Positions 20,525 to 31,539 of a stretch of DNA of 64,000 bases are shown piece after piece. Numbering within the stretch: position 1 is the first letter of the stretch; each line of letters starts with the position of its first letter. The translations under genes were made by a program, and so were the position numbers. The DNA comes from a bacterium. Lineage in GTDB: Bacteria > Patescibacteriota > Saccharimonadia > UBA4664. The notes under the pieces are model-generated. The model saw only the letters and a list, made by a program, of their open reading frames with translations. It had not been told where the DNA came from and did not search any database. The stretch lies in NCBI GenBank assembly GCA_016699105.1, contig CP064960.1, positions 747,696 to 811,695 on the forward strand, in the 5' to 3' direction.

Positions 20525-21130
20525 TTGTTAATGCCAGCAGAGCAAAATGGAGTGGGTCAAAGTCTATTAACTTCACTTGAAACGTTTGCCTGGTCCGTCC
20601 GTGAGACACCATTACGGTACTTAGGCGATCCGGTGCTGCGGGAGAAATGTACAAAAGTCGCGGCCGACGAGTTTAAGACGTCCTCCATAAAACATCTTGC
20701 CATTGAGTTGGTAAAAGTTCTCATGGATTATCGGCAGAATGTTGGCGTTGGTCGCGGACTAGCAGCAAATCAAATTGGCGCAACTAAACAAATGATTGCC
20801 GTTCTACTCGGTGATGAGCCTGAAGTTTTCTGTAATCCCCGCTTAATAGCTTCGAAAGGTATGGGAAGTTATGGTGAATCGTGTTTGTCATCTGGGGTAA
20901 TGCTGCTCGGAGAGGTTCGACGACCTTGGACAGGAAAGTTTGAATACGAAAACCTAGATGGGGTCACCAAGACGCTCGATGCAGACGAGTTGAAAACACG
21001 GGTGATATTACACGAAATTGATCATCTCAATGGCATTTCCTGCTCTGACAAATATGAGCCAAAAACGATGCGAATTGTGACTGGGGGAAAAGCTGAAGTT
21101 TTCGGGGAGCGGTTTAAGAAATTAGATTAA
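20525..21130 (+). CDS. def: peptide deformylase
   Basis: GVGRGLAANQIG, ESCLS and HEIDHLNG motifs. Confidence 0.85.
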   Translation: MLMPAEQNGVGQSLLTSLETFAWSVRETPLRYLGDPVLREKCTKVAADEFKTSSIKHLAIELVKVLMDYRQNVGVGRGLAANQIGATKQMIAVLLGDEPEVFCNPRLIASKGMGSYGESCLSSGVMLLGEVRRPWTGKFEYENLDGVTKTLDADELKTRVILHEIDHLNGISCSDKYEPKTMRIVTGGKAEVFGERFKKLD

Positions 21131-21802
21131 CCTTTTTGAACTCGATTGGGCTGTAAAGCGCTTGTGGCTGGTTGTACAATACAGCCCATTCTAGATCACC
21201 ATAAGAGAAGTGCCACCATTCACCATAGAAGGGTGCAAAGCCTTGTCTGGTCATGACGTCACAAAGAAGTTTGCGATTTCTTTGTCGCACATCGGATAAA
21301 CCGGAGCTGAAGGTTTGAATCTTGGGGTTAGTAAAGTCGGCAATTGCGGTGCCCATATCGAGTGCAGCACCTGACTCGTCGGCGAGCGTGAGATCGACTG
21401 CTCCGCCAGTGGGGTGTCCGGCAACAGCGGGCACGGCTACGTACATGTGAGTAGCCGCATCGAGCTCATCGTTAGACAACAGTGGACTCACTTGTTTGAG
21501 TAGTGCTCGCTGGTGGTCAAAGTACATTTGCTGAATATCGGGGTGCCTATAGCCGTATTCGATTTTTAATCGTAGTTTGCGCGATGCAAGGGTTTGGTTT
21601 ACGGCTGCCAATTTTTTGGCCACAGTCGTTCTGACGACGATAGTCTCTCCTGTATATGGGAGCATGTCAGTTTTGGCGTATTGAGCGATAATCGAGGGTC
21701 GTAGGATCGGACATCAATCATTTCATCTTGAATATCTTGCGAAGTGATTGGCATTAAATCCTGATATGAGACGATAGTTCGATTCTTGAGATTGAAGTTC
21801 AT
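21114..21802 (-). CDS. D-Ala-D-Ala dipeptidase (VanX/DdpX, peptidase M15D; apparent frameshift near 21690)
   Basis: The N-terminus (EMIDVRSYDP) is in one frame. The remainder (SIIAQYAKTDMLPYTGE...HPTGGAVDLTL...EWWHF) is in another. The junction lies at cgaccctcg. Confidence 0.7.
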
Positions 21803-21883
21803 GTTATTGGTTCCTATTTACTAATTGTTGGACGTAGCTGGGGTCGTAAATCGATTACGGCCCCAGCTACTGTTGCGCAGGGA

Positions 21884-22483
21884 TTACAGCTGGGCCAGCG
21901 CATCCACACAGCTACCGTGCAGGTAGATTCGCTTGGTGCTTTGAGACTGATTGACCTGGACTTGGTCGAGTGCCGACACATCCTGTGAGTTGGTGAGTTC
22001 GGTTGCGCCTAACTTCTGGTAGAGGTGTACCGAGTTTGAACCGACGGCTGCGGTCCTGAGCACATATTGTGTGCCGCCTATCTGCTGGATGATGGATAGC
22101 TGCTCACGGTTGAGGCGTCTACCAATTCCTCTCCTACGAAATGGCTCAAGCACACCGAGCTCGGACATATACCAGGTTGATGTGAAGTTGCCGGCGAATT
22201 CACTTGCAGTCTGCCTCTCACGCAGAAATACTTGGACATCACTAGGCGCATCAAACAGCGGTAGACAGCACCCGAAACCAATCACTCGTTGTGCCTGTAG
22301 TGCGAGAATCACAATGCCGCAGGTAATGTGTGGCTCCCAAATCTTGGTAAACACCTCCTCACTGCTGTAGCTCTCATAGTAAGGTGCTCCGCCAAAGGTA
22401 GATCGATAGGCGGCAATGAAGCCAGACTGAACTTTGAAGGACGTGTCGGCGTTGCCTCGTAGATACGAGACGTGTGTGGTCAC
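21884..22483 (-). CDS. GNAT-family N-acetyltransferase
   Basis: GVLEPFRRRGIGRRL acetyl-CoA motif. The GTG start overlaps the TGA of the upstream gene. Confidence 0.7.
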   Translation of the reverse strand: MTTHVSYLRGNADTSFKVQSGFIAAYRSTFGGAPYYESYSSEEVFTKIWEPHITCGIVILALQAQRVIGFGCCLPLFDAPSDVQVFLRERQTASEFAGNFTSTWYMSELGVLEPFRRRGIGRRLNREQLSIIQQIGGTQYVLRTAAVGSNSVHLYQKLGATELTNSQDVSALDQVQVNQSQSTKRIYLHGSCVDALAQL

Positions 22484-23240
22484 TGAACAACCTCCATTTC
22501 GCTGGCGAGGGTGATCCCGTTGCTGGTAAATCCAACCTGTATCGACTGTCCGGTGAGTTGGACAACGGATGTGGCTCCAGTTACATAGCCAGCGGCGATT
22601 GTGCCTGAGCCCATGACGTCTCATAGAAGAAGGTGTTGACGGCTCGCACCCACACCACTGGGTCTATATGAACCTCAGATTCCGTTTGACGACACCAGAT
22701 GACGCCAACGGCGTCGCGGCTGGCGAGACCGAACTGGGACATGATGCTCGCATGTGCCTGCTCGTAATCGGCCGGATCTTTCGGGAAAGCGGCCTCGACG
22801 ACGACATGTACAATGCCGCCGAGATCAACGATGGTGGCTGGGAACCTGTCCGGCAGGATGACTTGGCGCGCATTCACCGATAGCCCTGGGAATTCGCAGT
22901 GAACGAAAAAGCGGCTAGATGAACGTTGTTCGACGGTTGCATGTACTTTTCCACTGAACCCCGAAACGGTGAAGCTCAGGTTTTCTTGCTGAGTTCCTAT
23001 TTGTGATAGTAGGACGGCTGCGGATCGGGTGGCGTTTCCGCAGAATTCGCCGCCGGCCATTTCGAAGTGATTTTGGTTCAGCACGAGAAATCTGGCTTGC
23101 TCCGCACCTGCTAGCTCGAGCCTTTCGCCGAGAACGCGACCTTGCACTTCGTATTCTTCACGGGTGAGTGGGCGCTTGATGATCTTGATGGCTGTACCGT
23201 TACCACCGGCGGCGGTAATGAGTCTGATTTGGCCAGTCAT
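22480..23240 (-). CDS. DapF-family (diaminopimelate-epimerase fold) protein, apparent frameshift near 22600-22640
   Basis: The N-domain has GGNGTAI (compare GLGNDF) and EFCGNATRS (compare EMCGNGARC, first catalytic Cys). The C-terminal piece is in another frame: MGSGTIAAGYVTG...LTGQSIQVGFTSNGITLASE (compare ACGSGACAAVA). The second catalytic Cys is apparently not conserved. The dapE-like gene lies upstream. Confidence 0.55.
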
Positions 23241-23280
23241 TGCTTACTCCCTTGTGTTAGTTTGGCTTTTGCCTCATAGC

Positions 23281-23310
23281 AAAAGCCCCTCTCTCGACCG
23301 GAGAGGGGGC
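23281..23310 (-). terminator. intrinsic terminator hairpin (GCCCCCTCTCC-ggtcg-AGAGAGGGGC + UUUU)
   Basis: 10-bp GC-rich stem followed by a U4 tract on the minus strand, about 40 nt upstream of the dapF-like start codon. Confidence 0.5.
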
Positions 23311-23326
23311 TAACTTACTTTCATCA

Positions 23327-23356
23327 ATAAAACAAAATCAGGCCGCTCTCCAGCGG
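23327..23356 (-). terminator. intrinsic terminator-like hairpin (CCGCT-ggag-AGCGG + UGAUUUUGUUUU)
   Basis: 5-bp GC stem followed by a U-rich tract. It overlaps the 3' end of the His-rich small ORF. Confidence 0.4.
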
Positions 23357-23397
23357 AAATTTGAATGGTTATGAAGATGATGGAGTCGAACTATCAT
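23338..23397 (-). CDS. candidate leader peptide MIVRLHHLHNHSNFRWRAA (19 aa, 4 His)
   Basis: AGGA lies 6 nt upstream of the ATG. The ORF ends inside the terminator-like hairpin. It is too short to be confident. Confidence 0.2.
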   Translation of the reverse strand: MIVRLHHLHNHSNFRWRAA

Positions 23398-23464
23398 GTA
23401 GGTTCCTTATAATAAAAAATCCCTGAACGTGCATCACGAAGATGCTTGTCCAAGGAACGAGAGG

Positions 23465-23660
23465 AAATAAAAAGAGACCTCTCGCGGTCCCATCCTTGTT
23501 CGCAGGCTATCTCTAGCTTGCGCTCTCAGGCCGGCTCCGCTATTGCGACATCGGCTGCTTAATTTTACGGTTTGGCTTCCGTAGTGCATTTTGACACTCA
23601 GCTCGCGGATCGTGACTCCGCTTCATCGCCTAGGCGACACGCTTTATAGGGTATTTAATT
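23465..23660 (-). promoter_or_regulatory. T-box-like leader candidate (T-box motif + terminator/antiterminator)
   Basis: Minus strand AGGATGGGACCGCG matches 12 of 14 positions of the T-box consensus AGGGUGGNACCGCG. Its 3' half forms the 5' arm of a GGGACC/GGUCUC hairpin followed by UUUUUAUUU (23465-23491). The variable base is G. An upstream hairpin GCGGA-GUCACGA-UCCGC presents CAC in its loop. Confidence 0.3.
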
Positions 23661-23667
23661 TTGTTGA

Positions 23668-23696
23668 ACATTAGCATTATTTTAAATTTACGTCAA
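23668..23696 (-). promoter_or_regulatory. sigma-70-like promoter (TTGACG-17-TAATGT) for the leader
   Basis: The -35 and -10 hexamers have a 17-nt spacer, immediately downstream of the M20 peptidase stop. Confidence 0.35.
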
Positions 23697-23723
23697 GTAT
23701 GTAATTAGGCGATTTGGGAATCT

Positions 23724-24896
23724 TTAGTCTAAATCTACCACTTCTCCAGCTAACCTCGAGAGCAAAGTTAGAAGCGTATTGATTGAATCTGTTAGCGCGT
23801 ATTCATTGGCAGAATGAAAGTTGGCTCCAAACGGTCCATAGCCGGTAATGGTTGGGATTCCGCGAGATATGAGCATATAACTTTCATTGGCCGGACCGGA
23901 CCCCTTGAGAGACGAGTCAACACCAAAGAGTTCTTTGTTTAGCTTTAAGGCTCGTTTCACGATATCGGAGTTCGGATCAGTGAGCACTCCGGGCAGATTA
24001 TTCTTGACCTCAATAGTAAACGTACGCCTGCCATCCGAAAGCCGTTTTGTTAGCTCGGTAGTTTCACTGATTACTTCAGCGTTGCGATGCTCAGGCAAAA
24101 GTCGAATATCAAGGAGAACCTTAGCTCTGTCAGGAACGATCGACTCGCCGGCACCCCCTTCGATCAACGTAGGCGTAAGTACCGAGCGATACCCGGGAAA
24201 ATACTTGTTCTCTCCTGGAAGGGCGAATTCACGTAACTCGCTCAGTAGATCAATGAGCCCGTCGATGGCGTTGCTGCCGCGCTTCTTGTCTTGCCACTCT
24301 TTTGATCCGGAATGAATGCTTTCACCGTGACAAGTGACCCATAGACGAACAAGTCCACGGTGACCAATTGTGAGGTGTGATCCATCGGCGTTTCCACCAT
24401 AGGTATAGACGGCGGTACGGGCATTGAGCCCCTCATCAAGTAAATAACGCAGCCCTAATGTTGAATCAGCTCCAGACTCCTCGTCGGCAACACCAACAAA
24501 TTTTGCAGTATGCAGCTTGCCGGCATCTTTGAGCAGCTTGAGGGCATATAAGCTCATGGCGATTCCGCCCTTACAATCTATGGCACCACGGCCATAAAGG
24601 CGCTCGTTTTCGAGGATGCCGCTGAAAGGCGGATGGGTCCAAGCCGAGGTTTCGCCGACTGGTACTGTATCGAGATGGGCTCCCCGCAAAACCTCGTTTG
24701 TACCCTTAAAGTCCTCACCAACAAAAATATTTGGACGGTTGTTATCTTTTGCAATCACGCGATGCGGTAAGCCCAGCTTTGATGCCTCCGCACGAATTAC
24801 CTCTACAACAGCTGCCTCACCATTTTTTCCATTAACAGAGGGTGTTTGAATTAGCTTCTGAAGAAATGCTACTACATCGTTATGATAAGTTTTCAT
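23724..24896 (-). CDS. M20-family metallopeptidase (ArgE/DapE-like deacylase)
   Basis: GRGAIDCKGGIA metal-binding motif and HSGSKEW. The start is taken at MKTYHNDV. Confidence 0.75.
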   Translation of the reverse strand: MKTYHNDVVAFLQKLIQTPSVNGKNGEAAVVEVIRAEASKLGLPHRVIAKDNNRPNIFVGEDFKGTNEVLRGAHLDTVPVGETSAWTHPPFSGILENERLYGRGAIDCKGGIAMSLYALKLLKDAGKLHTAKFVGVADEESGADSTLGLRYLLDEGLNARTAVYTYGGNADGSHLTIGHRGLVRLWVTCHGESIHSGSKEWQDKKRGSNAIDGLIDLLSELREFALPGENKYFPGYRSVLTPTLIEGGAGESIVPDRAKVLLDIRLLPEHRNAEVISETTELTKRLSDGRRTFTIEVKNNLPGVLTDPNSDIVKRALKLNKELFGVDSSLKGSGPANESYMLISRGIPTITGYGPFGANFHSANEYALTDSINTLLTLLSRLAGEVVDLD

Positions 24897-24942
24897 GTTT
24901 GTATTATAGCAATATCGCGTAAAGCCCTTTGAGATGAAAGAA

Positions 24943-24966
24943 CAAAAAGAGGCTTCGGATAGCCTC
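24943..24966 (-). terminator. intrinsic terminator (GAGGCU-AUCCGA-AGCCUC + U5), copy D of a repeated element
   Basis: The hairpin plus T-run is read on the minus strand, downstream of the NYN gene. Confidence 0.5.
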
Positions 24967-25000
24967 AATTTGGTTACAATTCTTTGGTTGGGGAGAACGT
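24943..25000 (-). repeat. degenerate copy (D) of the tRNA-Gln 3' end + terminator segment (att-like)
   Basis: aaaaagaggcttcggatagcctcaattt...tggttggggagaacg aligns with the copies at 30584 and 31412. Confidence 0.45.
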
Positions 25001-25094: not shown

Positions 25095-25622
25095 CTAAGG
25101 TTTAGACCGACCGCCGATGCCGGTCTTTTGATATTCCAAGGACGACTTTAGCTGGCTGATCTCCACAATATATTTTGAGTACGGTCGCAACAGCTTAGAA
25201 TATTTACTATTGGGTGTGATAATGTGGAGCAGCTTGTTATTTTCCTCGAGGAACTGTATGAGGCATGTGAAATCTCCATCACCGCTCATGATAATGGCTT
25301 TTTCGTAATTAGCATACTCAACCGCAGCAGCATATAGCACAAGCTCAGCATCAACGTTACCTTTTACTGTCTCTTTACCGTTCTCGAAGTAGCGCACAGT
25401 AGGCTTAAAGATCAGTATAAAACCGGCTGCTTGTAATTGTGTGTAAAGCTTTTGGTTATTGGCGACAAGACCGATGAACATGAAAGCACGATCAACGTTA
25501 TATTTGTTTTTAAGGTAGAGGCGGAGCTTTTTGTAATCAACTTGCCATCCCATAGTGCGCACGCCAAGGTTCAGGTTTTGACTATCGATAAAGGCGTAAT
25601 TACTCATCTGCTCCCTCTTCAT
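25095..25622 (-). CDS. NYN-domain (LabA-like, PIN-like) protein
   Basis: YAFIDSQNLNLGVRTMGWQVDY...KGNVDAELV...IIMSGDGDF. Confidence 0.7.
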   Translation of the reverse strand: MKREQMSNYAFIDSQNLNLGVRTMGWQVDYKKLRLYLKNKYNVDRAFMFIGLVANNQKLYTQLQAAGFILIFKPTVRYFENGKETVKGNVDAELVLYAAAVEYANYEKAIIMSGDGDFTCLIQFLEENNKLLHIITPNSKYSKLLRPYSKYIVEISQLKSSLEYQKTGIGGRSKP

Positions 25623-31464: not shown

Positions 31465-31539
31465 TGGCTGGGTCGGCAGGATTCGAACCTGCGAATGACG
31501 GGACCAAAACCCGTTGCCTTACCGCTTGGCGACGACCCA
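31465..31539 (-). tRNA. tRNA-Gln (anticodon UUG)
   Basis: Folded manually: U1-A72 acceptor (TGGGTCG/CGACCCA); D-loop AAGCGGTAAGGC; anticodon stem ACGGG/CCCGT with loop TTTTGGT; T-arm GCAGG-TTCGAAT-CCTGC; discriminator G; encoded CCA. It matches the E. coli tRNA-Gln architecture. Confidence 0.85.

Follow-up and report, generated by a model that had tools for sequence, protein, structure and literature searches.

Two putative histidine-starvation sensors in series upstream of a histidine-racemase-like operon in a Saccharibacteria (TM7) genome

Background

Why should a leader with several signs of histidine control stand before a gene whose product resembles diaminopimelate epimerase (DapF)? The question is raised by a 483 nt intergenic leader (23241-23723) on the minus strand of a 64,000-nucleotide stretch of a Saccharibacteria (TM7) genome ([GenBank:CP064960.1], positions 747,696 to 811,695), called the window below, whose numbering is used throughout and on whose minus strand all leader elements lie. 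The leader is bounded at its 5' end by the stop codon of an M20 peptidase gene (23724-24968, minus) and at its 3' end by the start of a 219-codon open reading frame (ORF; 22581-23240, minus). An initial annotation, made from the letters of the sequence, had described a structured leader of about 480 bp with a T-box-like motif, a His-rich upstream ORF and three terminators, and could not match its hints of histidine to a DapF-fold enzyme; the length and the structure both hold, the predicted fold being more stable than that of shuffled sequences (z = -3.0).

We establish here the sequence, structure, covariation, conservation and gene context of this leader, which probably holds two histidine-starvation sensors in series ahead of an operon of racemase-like, GNAT acetyltransferase and M15 dipeptidase genes. 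The first sensor is very likely a member of a short-Stem-I class of His T-box that had previously gone unannotated.

T-box structure and covariation

At its curated gathering thresholds Rfam returns no match within the leader. In a permissive scan, the T-box model (RF00230) aligns end to end (model positions 1-219) with 35.5 bits (E 3e-6 for the region), well short of its gathering score of 93 bits. In this alignment 75 Stem I model positions are replaced by 8 nt in the window, so the low score reflects a missing distal Stem I rather than a weak core. None of the 13 related loci tested reaches the gathering score either. Other Rfam matches in the leader (sok, anti-hemB, sR49, mir-4524) were dismissed at E values of 0.2-2.4.

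Homologues of the protein encoded downstream number in the hundreds, are 251-253 aa long and come in many cases from Candidatus Saccharibacteria/Saccharimonadales and other Patescibacteria. Searches by nhmmer and by a core pattern located this leader at related loci (numbered with the prefix L) L001, L002, L005-7 (two copies each), L019, L033, L072, L081-L083 and L087. A metagenome scan with the 14-base T-box core alone returned 120 matches, mostly due to chance, of which 10 passed a simple context filter; 8 were true T-boxes (L099, L107, L117, L146, L153, L171, L182, L183) and two were false candidates (L110, L137). A covariance model (R1), built from a hand-written structure on alignment A4 and then used to realign the copies, recovers 24 of them from Saccharibacteria and other Candidate Phyla Radiation (CPR) contigs with 77-206 bits, the window scoring 187 bits. 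Pairs were counted on an alignment that had itself been fitted to the model structure and so favours it, which calls for some caution with the following values: standard pairs fill 93.7% of pair cells (36-46% when the 3' partners are slid), both-sided changes occur at 33 of 52 pairs, and the observed pairing and covariation were reached by none of 500 shuffles on any measure. Compensatory changes are also plain in the raw sequences, and the covariation among homologous leaders by which the T-box was to be judged is thus strong. A structure derived with MAFFT and RNAalifold was dropped; it put the 5-bp Stem I and Stem III out of register and introduced a spurious long-range helix.

The entire T-box (23450-23645) begins with a conserved AAAGCGU and ends with the antiterminator 3' strand. 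The 5' motif is followed by a kink-turn (K-turn)-like motif (GA on the 5' strand; GA or AA, then GCU, on the 3' strand), represented in the window by GA at 23624-23623 and GA-GCU at 23604-23600, on either side of an ultrashort Stem I (23600-23624 with these flanks). Stem I itself consists of 5 bp, GCGGA/UCCGC (23621-23617 and 23609-23605), closing a 7 nt terminal loop, GUCACGA (23616-23610), in which the CAC specifier occupies 23614-23612 and is followed by the purine G; this is the hairpin with CAC in its loop that had been picked out initially, at 23621-23605. Its arms covary freely in the relatives (GCUCUA/UAGAGC, CUGAA/UUCAG, CUGGA/UCCAG, GUUCC/GGAAC) around a conserved loop. In the 22 copies that extend over this region the stem is always 5-6 bp long, and in 21 of them the loop reads AGUCACG(A/C/U). 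The distal Stem I platform (AG bulge and distal loop, which bind the tRNA elbow) is absent from all of them. In the bulge of the K-turn below Stem I, the window also carries a lineage-specific hairpin, GUCGCC-UA-GGCGAU (23625-23638), which in L082 reads AUCGUU/AACGAU and so differs by two C-G to U-A double changes; it is limited to the window, L081 and L082, and missing from L083 and all other members.

Stem II (23583-23598) is a 5-bp hairpin, AGUGU/GCACU, with a conserved CAAAAU loop and no S-turn motif recognisable from the sequence; both-sided changes affect all five of its pairs, and 97.9% of cells are paired. It is followed by Stem IIA (CGG/CCG), the F-box CCGUAA (23570-23565) and the partner strand of the IIA/B pseudoknot (23558-23557), together spanning 23557-23581. 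The pseudoknot covaries across the family (GUGA/UCAC, GCAG/CUGC, GCCA/UGGC, GCUA/UAGC, GUUG/CAAC), and L082 (GCCA/UGGC) and L083 (GCUA/UAGC) retain four pairs. It counts against the T-box reading that in the window and L081, where the loop GCCA faces UAAGC, only 2 bp remain (G23576-C23557 and C23575-G23558). Between the pseudoknot and Stem III lies an extra hairpin, GCCG-AUG-UCGC..GCG-G-GAG-CCGGC (23530-23555), whose helices (6 and 7) are 94-100% paired with both-sided changes at 5 of 8 pairs and which carries large insertions in L117 and L171. Stem III (23501-23522) shows compensatory changes at all nine of its pairs. The T-box core, AGGAUGGGACCGCG, occupies 23496-23483, where a match to the T-box consensus had been noted from the outset.

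Specifier and regulon

The variable base of the T-box is G in all 24 copies and calls for a C73 discriminator in the tRNA. Genes behind the leader point the same way. The leader stands upstream of hisS in L117; of a hisG-hisE-racemase-GNAT cluster in L005-7; of a racemase gene, a gene of no recognised kind and then hisS in L033; and of M15 dipeptidase genes in L001, L002, L005-7 and L087. In four loci (L033, L146, L182, L183) a tRNA-His(GUG) gene lies directly 3' of the T-box terminator, leading in L183 to isochorismatase-like, NYN-domain and hisS genes, and in L146, as in L153, to hisG. These co-located tRNA-His genes have C73, an encoded G-1 and the GUG anticodon. Because of this regulon (hisS, hisG/hisE, tRNA-His with GUG and C73) and the variable base G, histidine specificity is well supported, and the earlier argument from variable base to C73 to histidine is borne out by the tRNA genes themselves. 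Where the T-box precedes tRNA-His, it appears to control the gene of its own ligand.

In principle the codon read from the loop GUCACGA could instead be GUC (Val), UCA (Ser) or ACG (Thr), and GUC-A and ACG-A likewise satisfy the rule of a codon followed by a purine. We consider a specifier other than histidine exceedingly improbable: the invariant UGGG demands C73, which the co-located tRNA-His combines with the GUG anticodon; the regulated genes hisS, hisG, hisE and tRNA-His speak against Val, Ser and Thr; and the T-box database TBDB lists CAC, a C-ending codon, as the preferred specifier of His T-boxes.

The his genes under these T-boxes are odd in themselves, Saccharibacteria and other CPR bacteria being regarded as amino-acid auxotrophs. 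In L005 (2727-3908), and also in L006 and L007, a long-form hisG and hisE stand under a His T-box with no other histidine biosynthesis genes nearby; in L146 and L153, hisG/hisE under a His T-box follow the tRNA-His gene, again with no other his genes nearby. The tRNA-His genes lie at 3872-3945 in L033, 3735-3809 in L146, 97-172 (minus) in L182 and 2026-2097 in L183, and L153 has an aberrant copy. In the 64-kb window, tblastn found no hisG, hisE or hisS; the sole tRNA gene there is tRNA-Gln(UUG) (31465-31539, minus), and tRNA-His is encoded elsewhere. Genes for NYN-domain proteins (predicted RNases) recur in or next to His T-box operons (L072 5604-6200; L183 2737-3360), and the window has one at 25095-25622 (minus), two genes upstream of the leader. 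A 271-273 aa protein follows the racemase homologue in the His T-box operons of L033 (4777-5598) and L072 (4771-5586); the two are 58% identical and have no Pfam domain.

Antiterminator and terminator

The predicted antiterminator (23451-23498; -17.7 kcal/mol) comprises helix A1 (CAAGGA/UCCUUG), helix A2 (GCGAGAGG/CCUCUCGU, with a 13 nt U-rich loop) and between them the T-box bulge UGGGACC (23492-23486, of which UGGG is 23492-23489), invariant in 24 of 24 copies. It competes with the T-box terminator, UCCUUGGAC-AA-GCAUC-UUCGU-GAUGC-AC-GUUCAGGGA followed by UUUUUUAUUAU (23409-23456), predicted to be slightly the more stable of the two at -19.0 kcal/mol. The 3' strand of A1 doubles as the 5' arm of this terminator, UCCUUG being common to both, so that folding makes the hairpin (23456-23420, then U6) and A1 mutually exclusive. 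The terminator stems of L082 and L083 differ from the window in sequence, keep their pairing and are followed by U5-6, and a platform hairpin sharing the 3' strand of the antiterminator is common to all members of the family.

This was not the terminator first proposed. The initial annotation had placed a canonical T-box antiterminator/terminator arrangement at 23491-23465, where GGGACC-GCGAGA-GGUCUC is followed by UUUUUAUUU (-8.4 kcal/mol), and had overlooked the canonical terminator (UCCUUGGAC..GUUCAGGGA and U6, 23456-23409). We reject the former hairpin in that role: it is nested in the apical part of the antiterminator and pairs with the T-box bulge instead of the antiterminator 3' strand, masking the G residues that bind the acceptor end. 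It is conserved in 15 of 18 copies examined, in the register GGGACC/GGUCYC or GACCGC/GCGGUC, at -5 to -11 kcal/mol and always with U5-8 on its 3' side; in some members, the window not among them, this U-run pairs with a downstream A-run that extends A2. Three roles are conceivable for the nested hairpin: early termination, pausing, or stabilisation of the OFF state. That it works as an early terminator or strong pause, with the acceptor-binding GGGACC as its 5' arm, is a tentative suggestion to which we give rather less than even weight. If true, uncharged tRNA-His would have to win its site twice, once by blocking the nested hairpin and again by stabilising the antiterminator; alternatively, a pause there would buy the time for tRNA capture that is normally given by the elbow platform, and so explain how a platform-less T-box works co-transcriptionally. 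Together with the T-box and the attenuator described below, the leader would then be a three-checkpoint histidine gate.

The missing platform is the point at which the terminator-type reading is most open to question. Transcriptional T-boxes generally require a long Stem I with an elbow platform, which is said to be necessary for them (PMC7583486), and because it is missing here terminator-type switching is not guaranteed. The T-box might instead act chiefly on translation or RNA stability, with the hairpin at 23456-23420 acting by sequestration or stabilisation and not as an efficient terminator. An ultrashort Stem I combined with A2 insertions is typical of translational T-boxes, the actinobacterial ileS T-boxes of this build being translational and often carrying such insertions (PMC7583486); in L001 and L002 the platform hairpin includes the Shine-Dalgarno (SD) sequence and lacks a good U-tract; and many CPR members have GGGAGG, an SD, in the 3' arm of the platform just upstream of the start codon, plus a U-tract. 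Against this, U5-6 follows the hairpin in the window, L082 and L083, and the next SD in the window (AAGGAA) lies outside the hairpin. A U-tract follows the platform hairpin in most members, making dual action at least as likely. The L001 and L002 platform looks purely translational and that of many CPR members may act at both levels; for the window we think a chiefly translational or stabilising role improbable, if not negligibly so, and prefer termination.

Putative leader peptide and second terminator

In the window's clade the T-box terminator and the start codon of the racemase gene lie about 170 nt apart, and the interval between them contains a second module, known from five copies (window, L081, L082, L083 and L084, whose contig begins inside the module) with four distinct sequences. 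It begins with an SD, AAGGAA (23408-23403), and a 19-codon leader ORF with its stop codon (23397-23338; 23338-23408 with the SD), which encodes MIVRLHHLHNHSNFRWRAA in the window and MRVRLHHLHHHSHFRWRAA, MTKRQHHLHQPSFTRWRAA and MNQRLHHLHQSVYYRRGAA as the other distinct peptides. The His-rich ORF with a good ribosome binding site that had been noted before is thus present, and its HHLH is conserved: the HHLH codons (23382-23371) are invariant, an additional His codon lies at 23367-23365, and the window and L082 lineage has 4-6 His codons in all. The ORF is 19 codons long in 5 of 5 copies and free of indels, while both its flanks carry them; the changes within it include synonymous ones at Arg4 and Leu5 and, in L082, two replacements of Asn by His.

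The last codons of the ORF form a small hairpin, CCGC-UGGAGA-GCGG (23343-23356; A:B), which precedes a U-rich tract and had been taken for a second terminator. Its stems are invariant, its loop varying in L084 alone, and it is a plausible candidate for a pause hairpin. An attenuator antiterminator is predicted from pairing of GCUGGAGAGCGGCCUGAUU (23354-23335), which covers leader codons 15-19 and the stop, with AAGUUAGCCCCCUCUCCGGU (23317-23297), spanning 23297-23354; each of the four distinct sequences is predicted to fold this way, at -22 to -26 kcal/mol, as long as the 3' arm of the terminator is still untranscribed. The antiterminator shares the arm 23309-23298 with a GC-rich attenuator terminator, GCCCCCUCUC-CGGUCGA-GAGAGGGGC followed by UUUU (23281-23310). 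In L084 the terminator arms read CCCCUCCC/GGGAGGGG, a compensatory change of U-A to C-G, and the compensation is three-way: the U-to-C change in the shared arm is met by A-to-G changes in both its antiterminator and its terminator partners, the antiterminator A-U likewise becoming G-C. Read-through would release a further hairpin, GCUUUUGC-UAUGAG-GCAAAAGC (23265-23286), the minimum-energy fold, whose 5' arm is the terminator U-tract and in which A-to-G and C-to-U changes in L082 and L083 retain pairing as wobbles. The third terminator of the initial annotation therefore stands, as does the overlap through which it shares its U-tract with the hairpin at 23286-23265.

Modelling of ribosome footprints supports such a switch: a ribosome on the stop codon leaves only the terminator able to form, and one with His9 in its A site ends just short of the antiterminator arm. 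We therefore read the module as a likely His leader-peptide attenuator, on thinner evidence than the T-box. Several observations weigh against that reading. The attenuator is known from just the five copies (four distinct), with little variation among them; its covariation rests on one lineage, L084; the invariant His codons number only three; and without any ribosome the antiterminator is predicted to form first, unlike the trp/his paradigm. Moreover, even with a footprint at His9 the terminator remains the minimum-energy fold at equilibrium, so that the model needs kinetic control.

One may then ask whether the T-box alone is functional, the ORF and second terminator being passengers (a remnant terminator or a recent transfer) with His codons by coincidence and near-identity due to recent common descent rather than selection. 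The five copies belong to one narrow clade, in most members of the T-box family no second module comes between the T-box terminator and the regulated gene, and the Rfam His-leader model, RF00514, for which a match had been thought worth seeking, finds none in the leader at E values up to 10. The pattern of conservation is nevertheless hard to square with a passenger. About 150 nt of the module are near-identical between the window and L082, though the racemases are 71% identical and the T-box stems differ, and it is still recognisable in L083 and L084 (66% protein identity); neither the T-box stems on its flank nor the racemase genes, at 71% and 66% identity, come near it in conservation. The ORF holds its frame and length between flanks that carry indels, shows synonymous changes and Asn-to-His replacements, and is followed by arms with the three-way compensation of L084; and an unconditional strong terminator between promoter and operon would silence the operon. 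A passenger module seems unlikely to us, and attenuation by the leader peptide remains the preferred reading.

Promoter and downstream operon

The promoter-like site that was noted initially is present: TTGACG (23696-23691), a 17 nt spacer and TAATGT (23673-23668), together 23668-23696. A consensus scan does not list it because its -10 hexamer matches the consensus at only 3 of 6 positions; relatives (L082, L005, L001, L033, L146) carry TTGACA/TTGACC-17-TATAAT-like hexamers at the equivalent site.

At the other end of the leader, an SD (AAGGGAG, 23253-23247) precedes the ATG (23240-23238) of the racemase-like gene (23238-23253 together). As assembled, its ORF has 219 codons and stops at 22581, one base being missing in the codon of Cys210 (22611-22613). 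With that base restored the gene runs over 22480-23240 (minus) and encodes 253 aa, reading ETSCGSGTIAAG...VVQ and 96% identical over its full length to P0001. A Pfam scan of the reconstructed 253 aa protein found no family; its close homologues carry the precomputed Pfam label CntK_N. Its best NCBIfam matches, HisR (51 bits, cut-off 400) and CntK (33 bits, cut-off 300), are below the equivalog cut-offs. A profile of the family matches Fusobacterium nucleatum HisR (9cr6/9cr1) at E 3.6e-23, compared with 5e-13 for DapF, and Cys67 and Cys210, invariant in 29 homologues, align with the catalytic Cys67 and Cys209 of HisR. On this evidence the gene is a member of the CntK/HisR histidine-racemase family (PF26317), as a related family rather than an equivalog. 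The family assignment makes a histidine signal expected, and the mismatch that had troubled the initial annotation dissolves: judged from the sequence, histidine control of this operon is coherent, not paradoxical.

The rest of the operon (21114-22483, minus) consists of a GNAT acetyltransferase gene, whose start is probably the GTG of a GTGA stop/start overlap with the racemase gene and which ends at 21884, and an M15 D-Ala-D-Ala-dipeptidase-like gene with an apparent frameshift near 21698, which splits it into ORFs 21114-21665 and 21599-21802. The gene order racemase-GNAT-M15 is the same in L081-L084. Over 2.5 kb compared with L081 (97% DNA identity), the window lacks a single base at four places (22611-22613, ~21864, ~21843 and ~21698), three of them in homopolymers and two yielding the apparent frameshifts in the racemase and M15 genes; assembly errors are probably the cause, and we reject the alternative that these two are pseudogenes. 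The upstream 'dapE-like' neighbour of the initial annotation, the M20 gene, lies outside the conserved unit; it is not next to the leader in L081, whose upstream neighbour differs, or in L082.

A T-box does not precede every racemase homologue; it is missing there from L003, L004, L008-L018 and L085-L087. In the next-closest clade (L085, L086 and L087, with racemases 61-62% identical), hisS is divergently adjacent to the racemase gene (L085 1452-2756, L086 966-2270, L087 1463-2782, all minus). The racemase gene there has a plain promoter and a short 5' untranslated region, as seen in L087, whose M15 gene keeps a T-box of its own.

Proposed mechanism and significance

From the sequences and structures above we infer how tRNA would bind, where ribosomes would stall and transcription would end, and in which direction the operon would be regulated, as follows. 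In the first sensor (23645-23409), the CAC specifier would be displayed in the 7 nt loop of a 5-bp Stem I resting on the K-turn, and uncharged tRNA-His would pair through its C73-C-C-A end with UGGG, thereby stabilising the antiterminator against the terminator at 23456-23409. In the second (23408-23281), a ribosome that moves past the HHLH(NH) codons to the stop would mask the arm formed by codons 15-19, favouring the terminator; one stalled at the His codons would leave that arm free, so that the antiterminator could form and RNA polymerase could enter the operon. If both sensors have to be passed, the leader is an AND gate on uncharged and charged tRNA-His.

Such a gate, a T-box followed by a leader-peptide attenuator that sense uncharged and charged tRNA-His in series, would be new logic. 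We found no description in the literature of a leader-peptide attenuator placed behind a T-box of the same amino-acid specificity, nor, in full text, any report of T-boxes in Saccharibacteria, CPR, Patescibacteria or TM7, with coverage that is incomplete in both cases and so no proof of novelty. T-box regulation in the CPR is effectively unannotated because its members miss the Rfam threshold and TBDB ran its short-Stem-I model over Actinobacteria only; the window and its 13 sub-threshold relatives mark this blind spot. An ultrashort Stem I joined to a platform of hairpin plus U-tract would be a counter-example to the rule of the long Stem I (PMC7583486), and could be used to test the kinetic argument behind it. 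In several CPR genomes the T-box directly before the tRNA-His gene suggests self-regulation of the ligand.

The operon also gives a lead on HisR-type histidine racemases, whose physiological role is unknown (PMC11602996). A homologue is predicted here to be ON, together with a GNAT protein and a D-Ala-D-Ala-dipeptidase-like enzyme, under histidine starvation in auxotrophic epibionts. Such induction would suggest histidine salvage, with D-His or peptides containing D-amino acids as possible sources, and it is reasonable to suppose that the salvage would yield L-histidine.

Comparison with known systems

The nearest well-described relatives are the His T-boxes of Firmicutes (RF00230), which control hisS, the his operon and hisXYZ. 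Shared with them are the UGGN-ACC bulge, helices A1 and A2, a terminator that uses the antiterminator 3' strand, a K-turn beneath Stem I, CAC followed by a purine, the IIA/B pseudoknot with its F-box, Stem III and the control of hisS and other his genes. Unlike them, the present class has a Stem I of 5-6 bp that ends at the specifier loop, with no AG bulge, distal loop or platform; a 5-bp Stem II with a CAAAAU loop; an extra hairpin before Stem III; and a long A2 that carries the nested hairpin and its U-tract. It scores below the gathering score (35.5 against 93 bits), occurs in Saccharibacteria and other CPR hosts and controls the racemase-like operon, M15 dipeptidase genes and tRNA-His genes.

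In the truncation of Stem I at the specifier loop it resembles the actinobacterial ileS T-boxes (Sherwood et al. 2015 and the M. tuberculosis ileS structures, both as reported in PMC7583486), which likewise have no elbow platform, keep Stem II and IIA/B, carry insertions atop A2 and, as in L001 and L002, sequester the SD in some members. It differs from them in amino acid (His, not Ile) and phylum, and in the U-tract that follows the hairpin in the window and most members and suggests a terminator-type or dual switch; L001 and L002 alone fit the SD-sequestering, terminator-less platform of the actinobacterial class, and the window does not.

The second module shares with hisL (RF00514) and with the His-leader attenuators of Firmicutes (PMC9413887) a small ORF in which His codons cluster, an antiterminator and a terminator that overlap, and a stop codon placed so that a ribosome there would mask the antiterminator arm. 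It has no sequence or model similarity to RF00514, encodes HHLH and 1-3 more His rather than a run of 7, and stands behind a T-box, before a racemase-like operon instead of his biosynthesis genes. In the account of histidine regulation in Gram-positive bacteria in PMC9413887, T-box and His-leader attenuator appear as alternatives in different lineages; tandem T-boxes are mentioned there, a tandem of T-box and attenuator is not.

Its closest counterparts as a gate are therefore the tandem riboswitches, whether tandem T-boxes or the AND gate of T-box and ppGpp riboswitch (Sherlock et al. 2018, as cited in PMC7583486), which also place two terminator-type switches in series and require both to be ON. 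The arrangement proposed here departs from them in that its second switch would be operated by a ribosome rather than by ligand binding, and in that both sensors would read one amino acid through two charging states of one tRNA.

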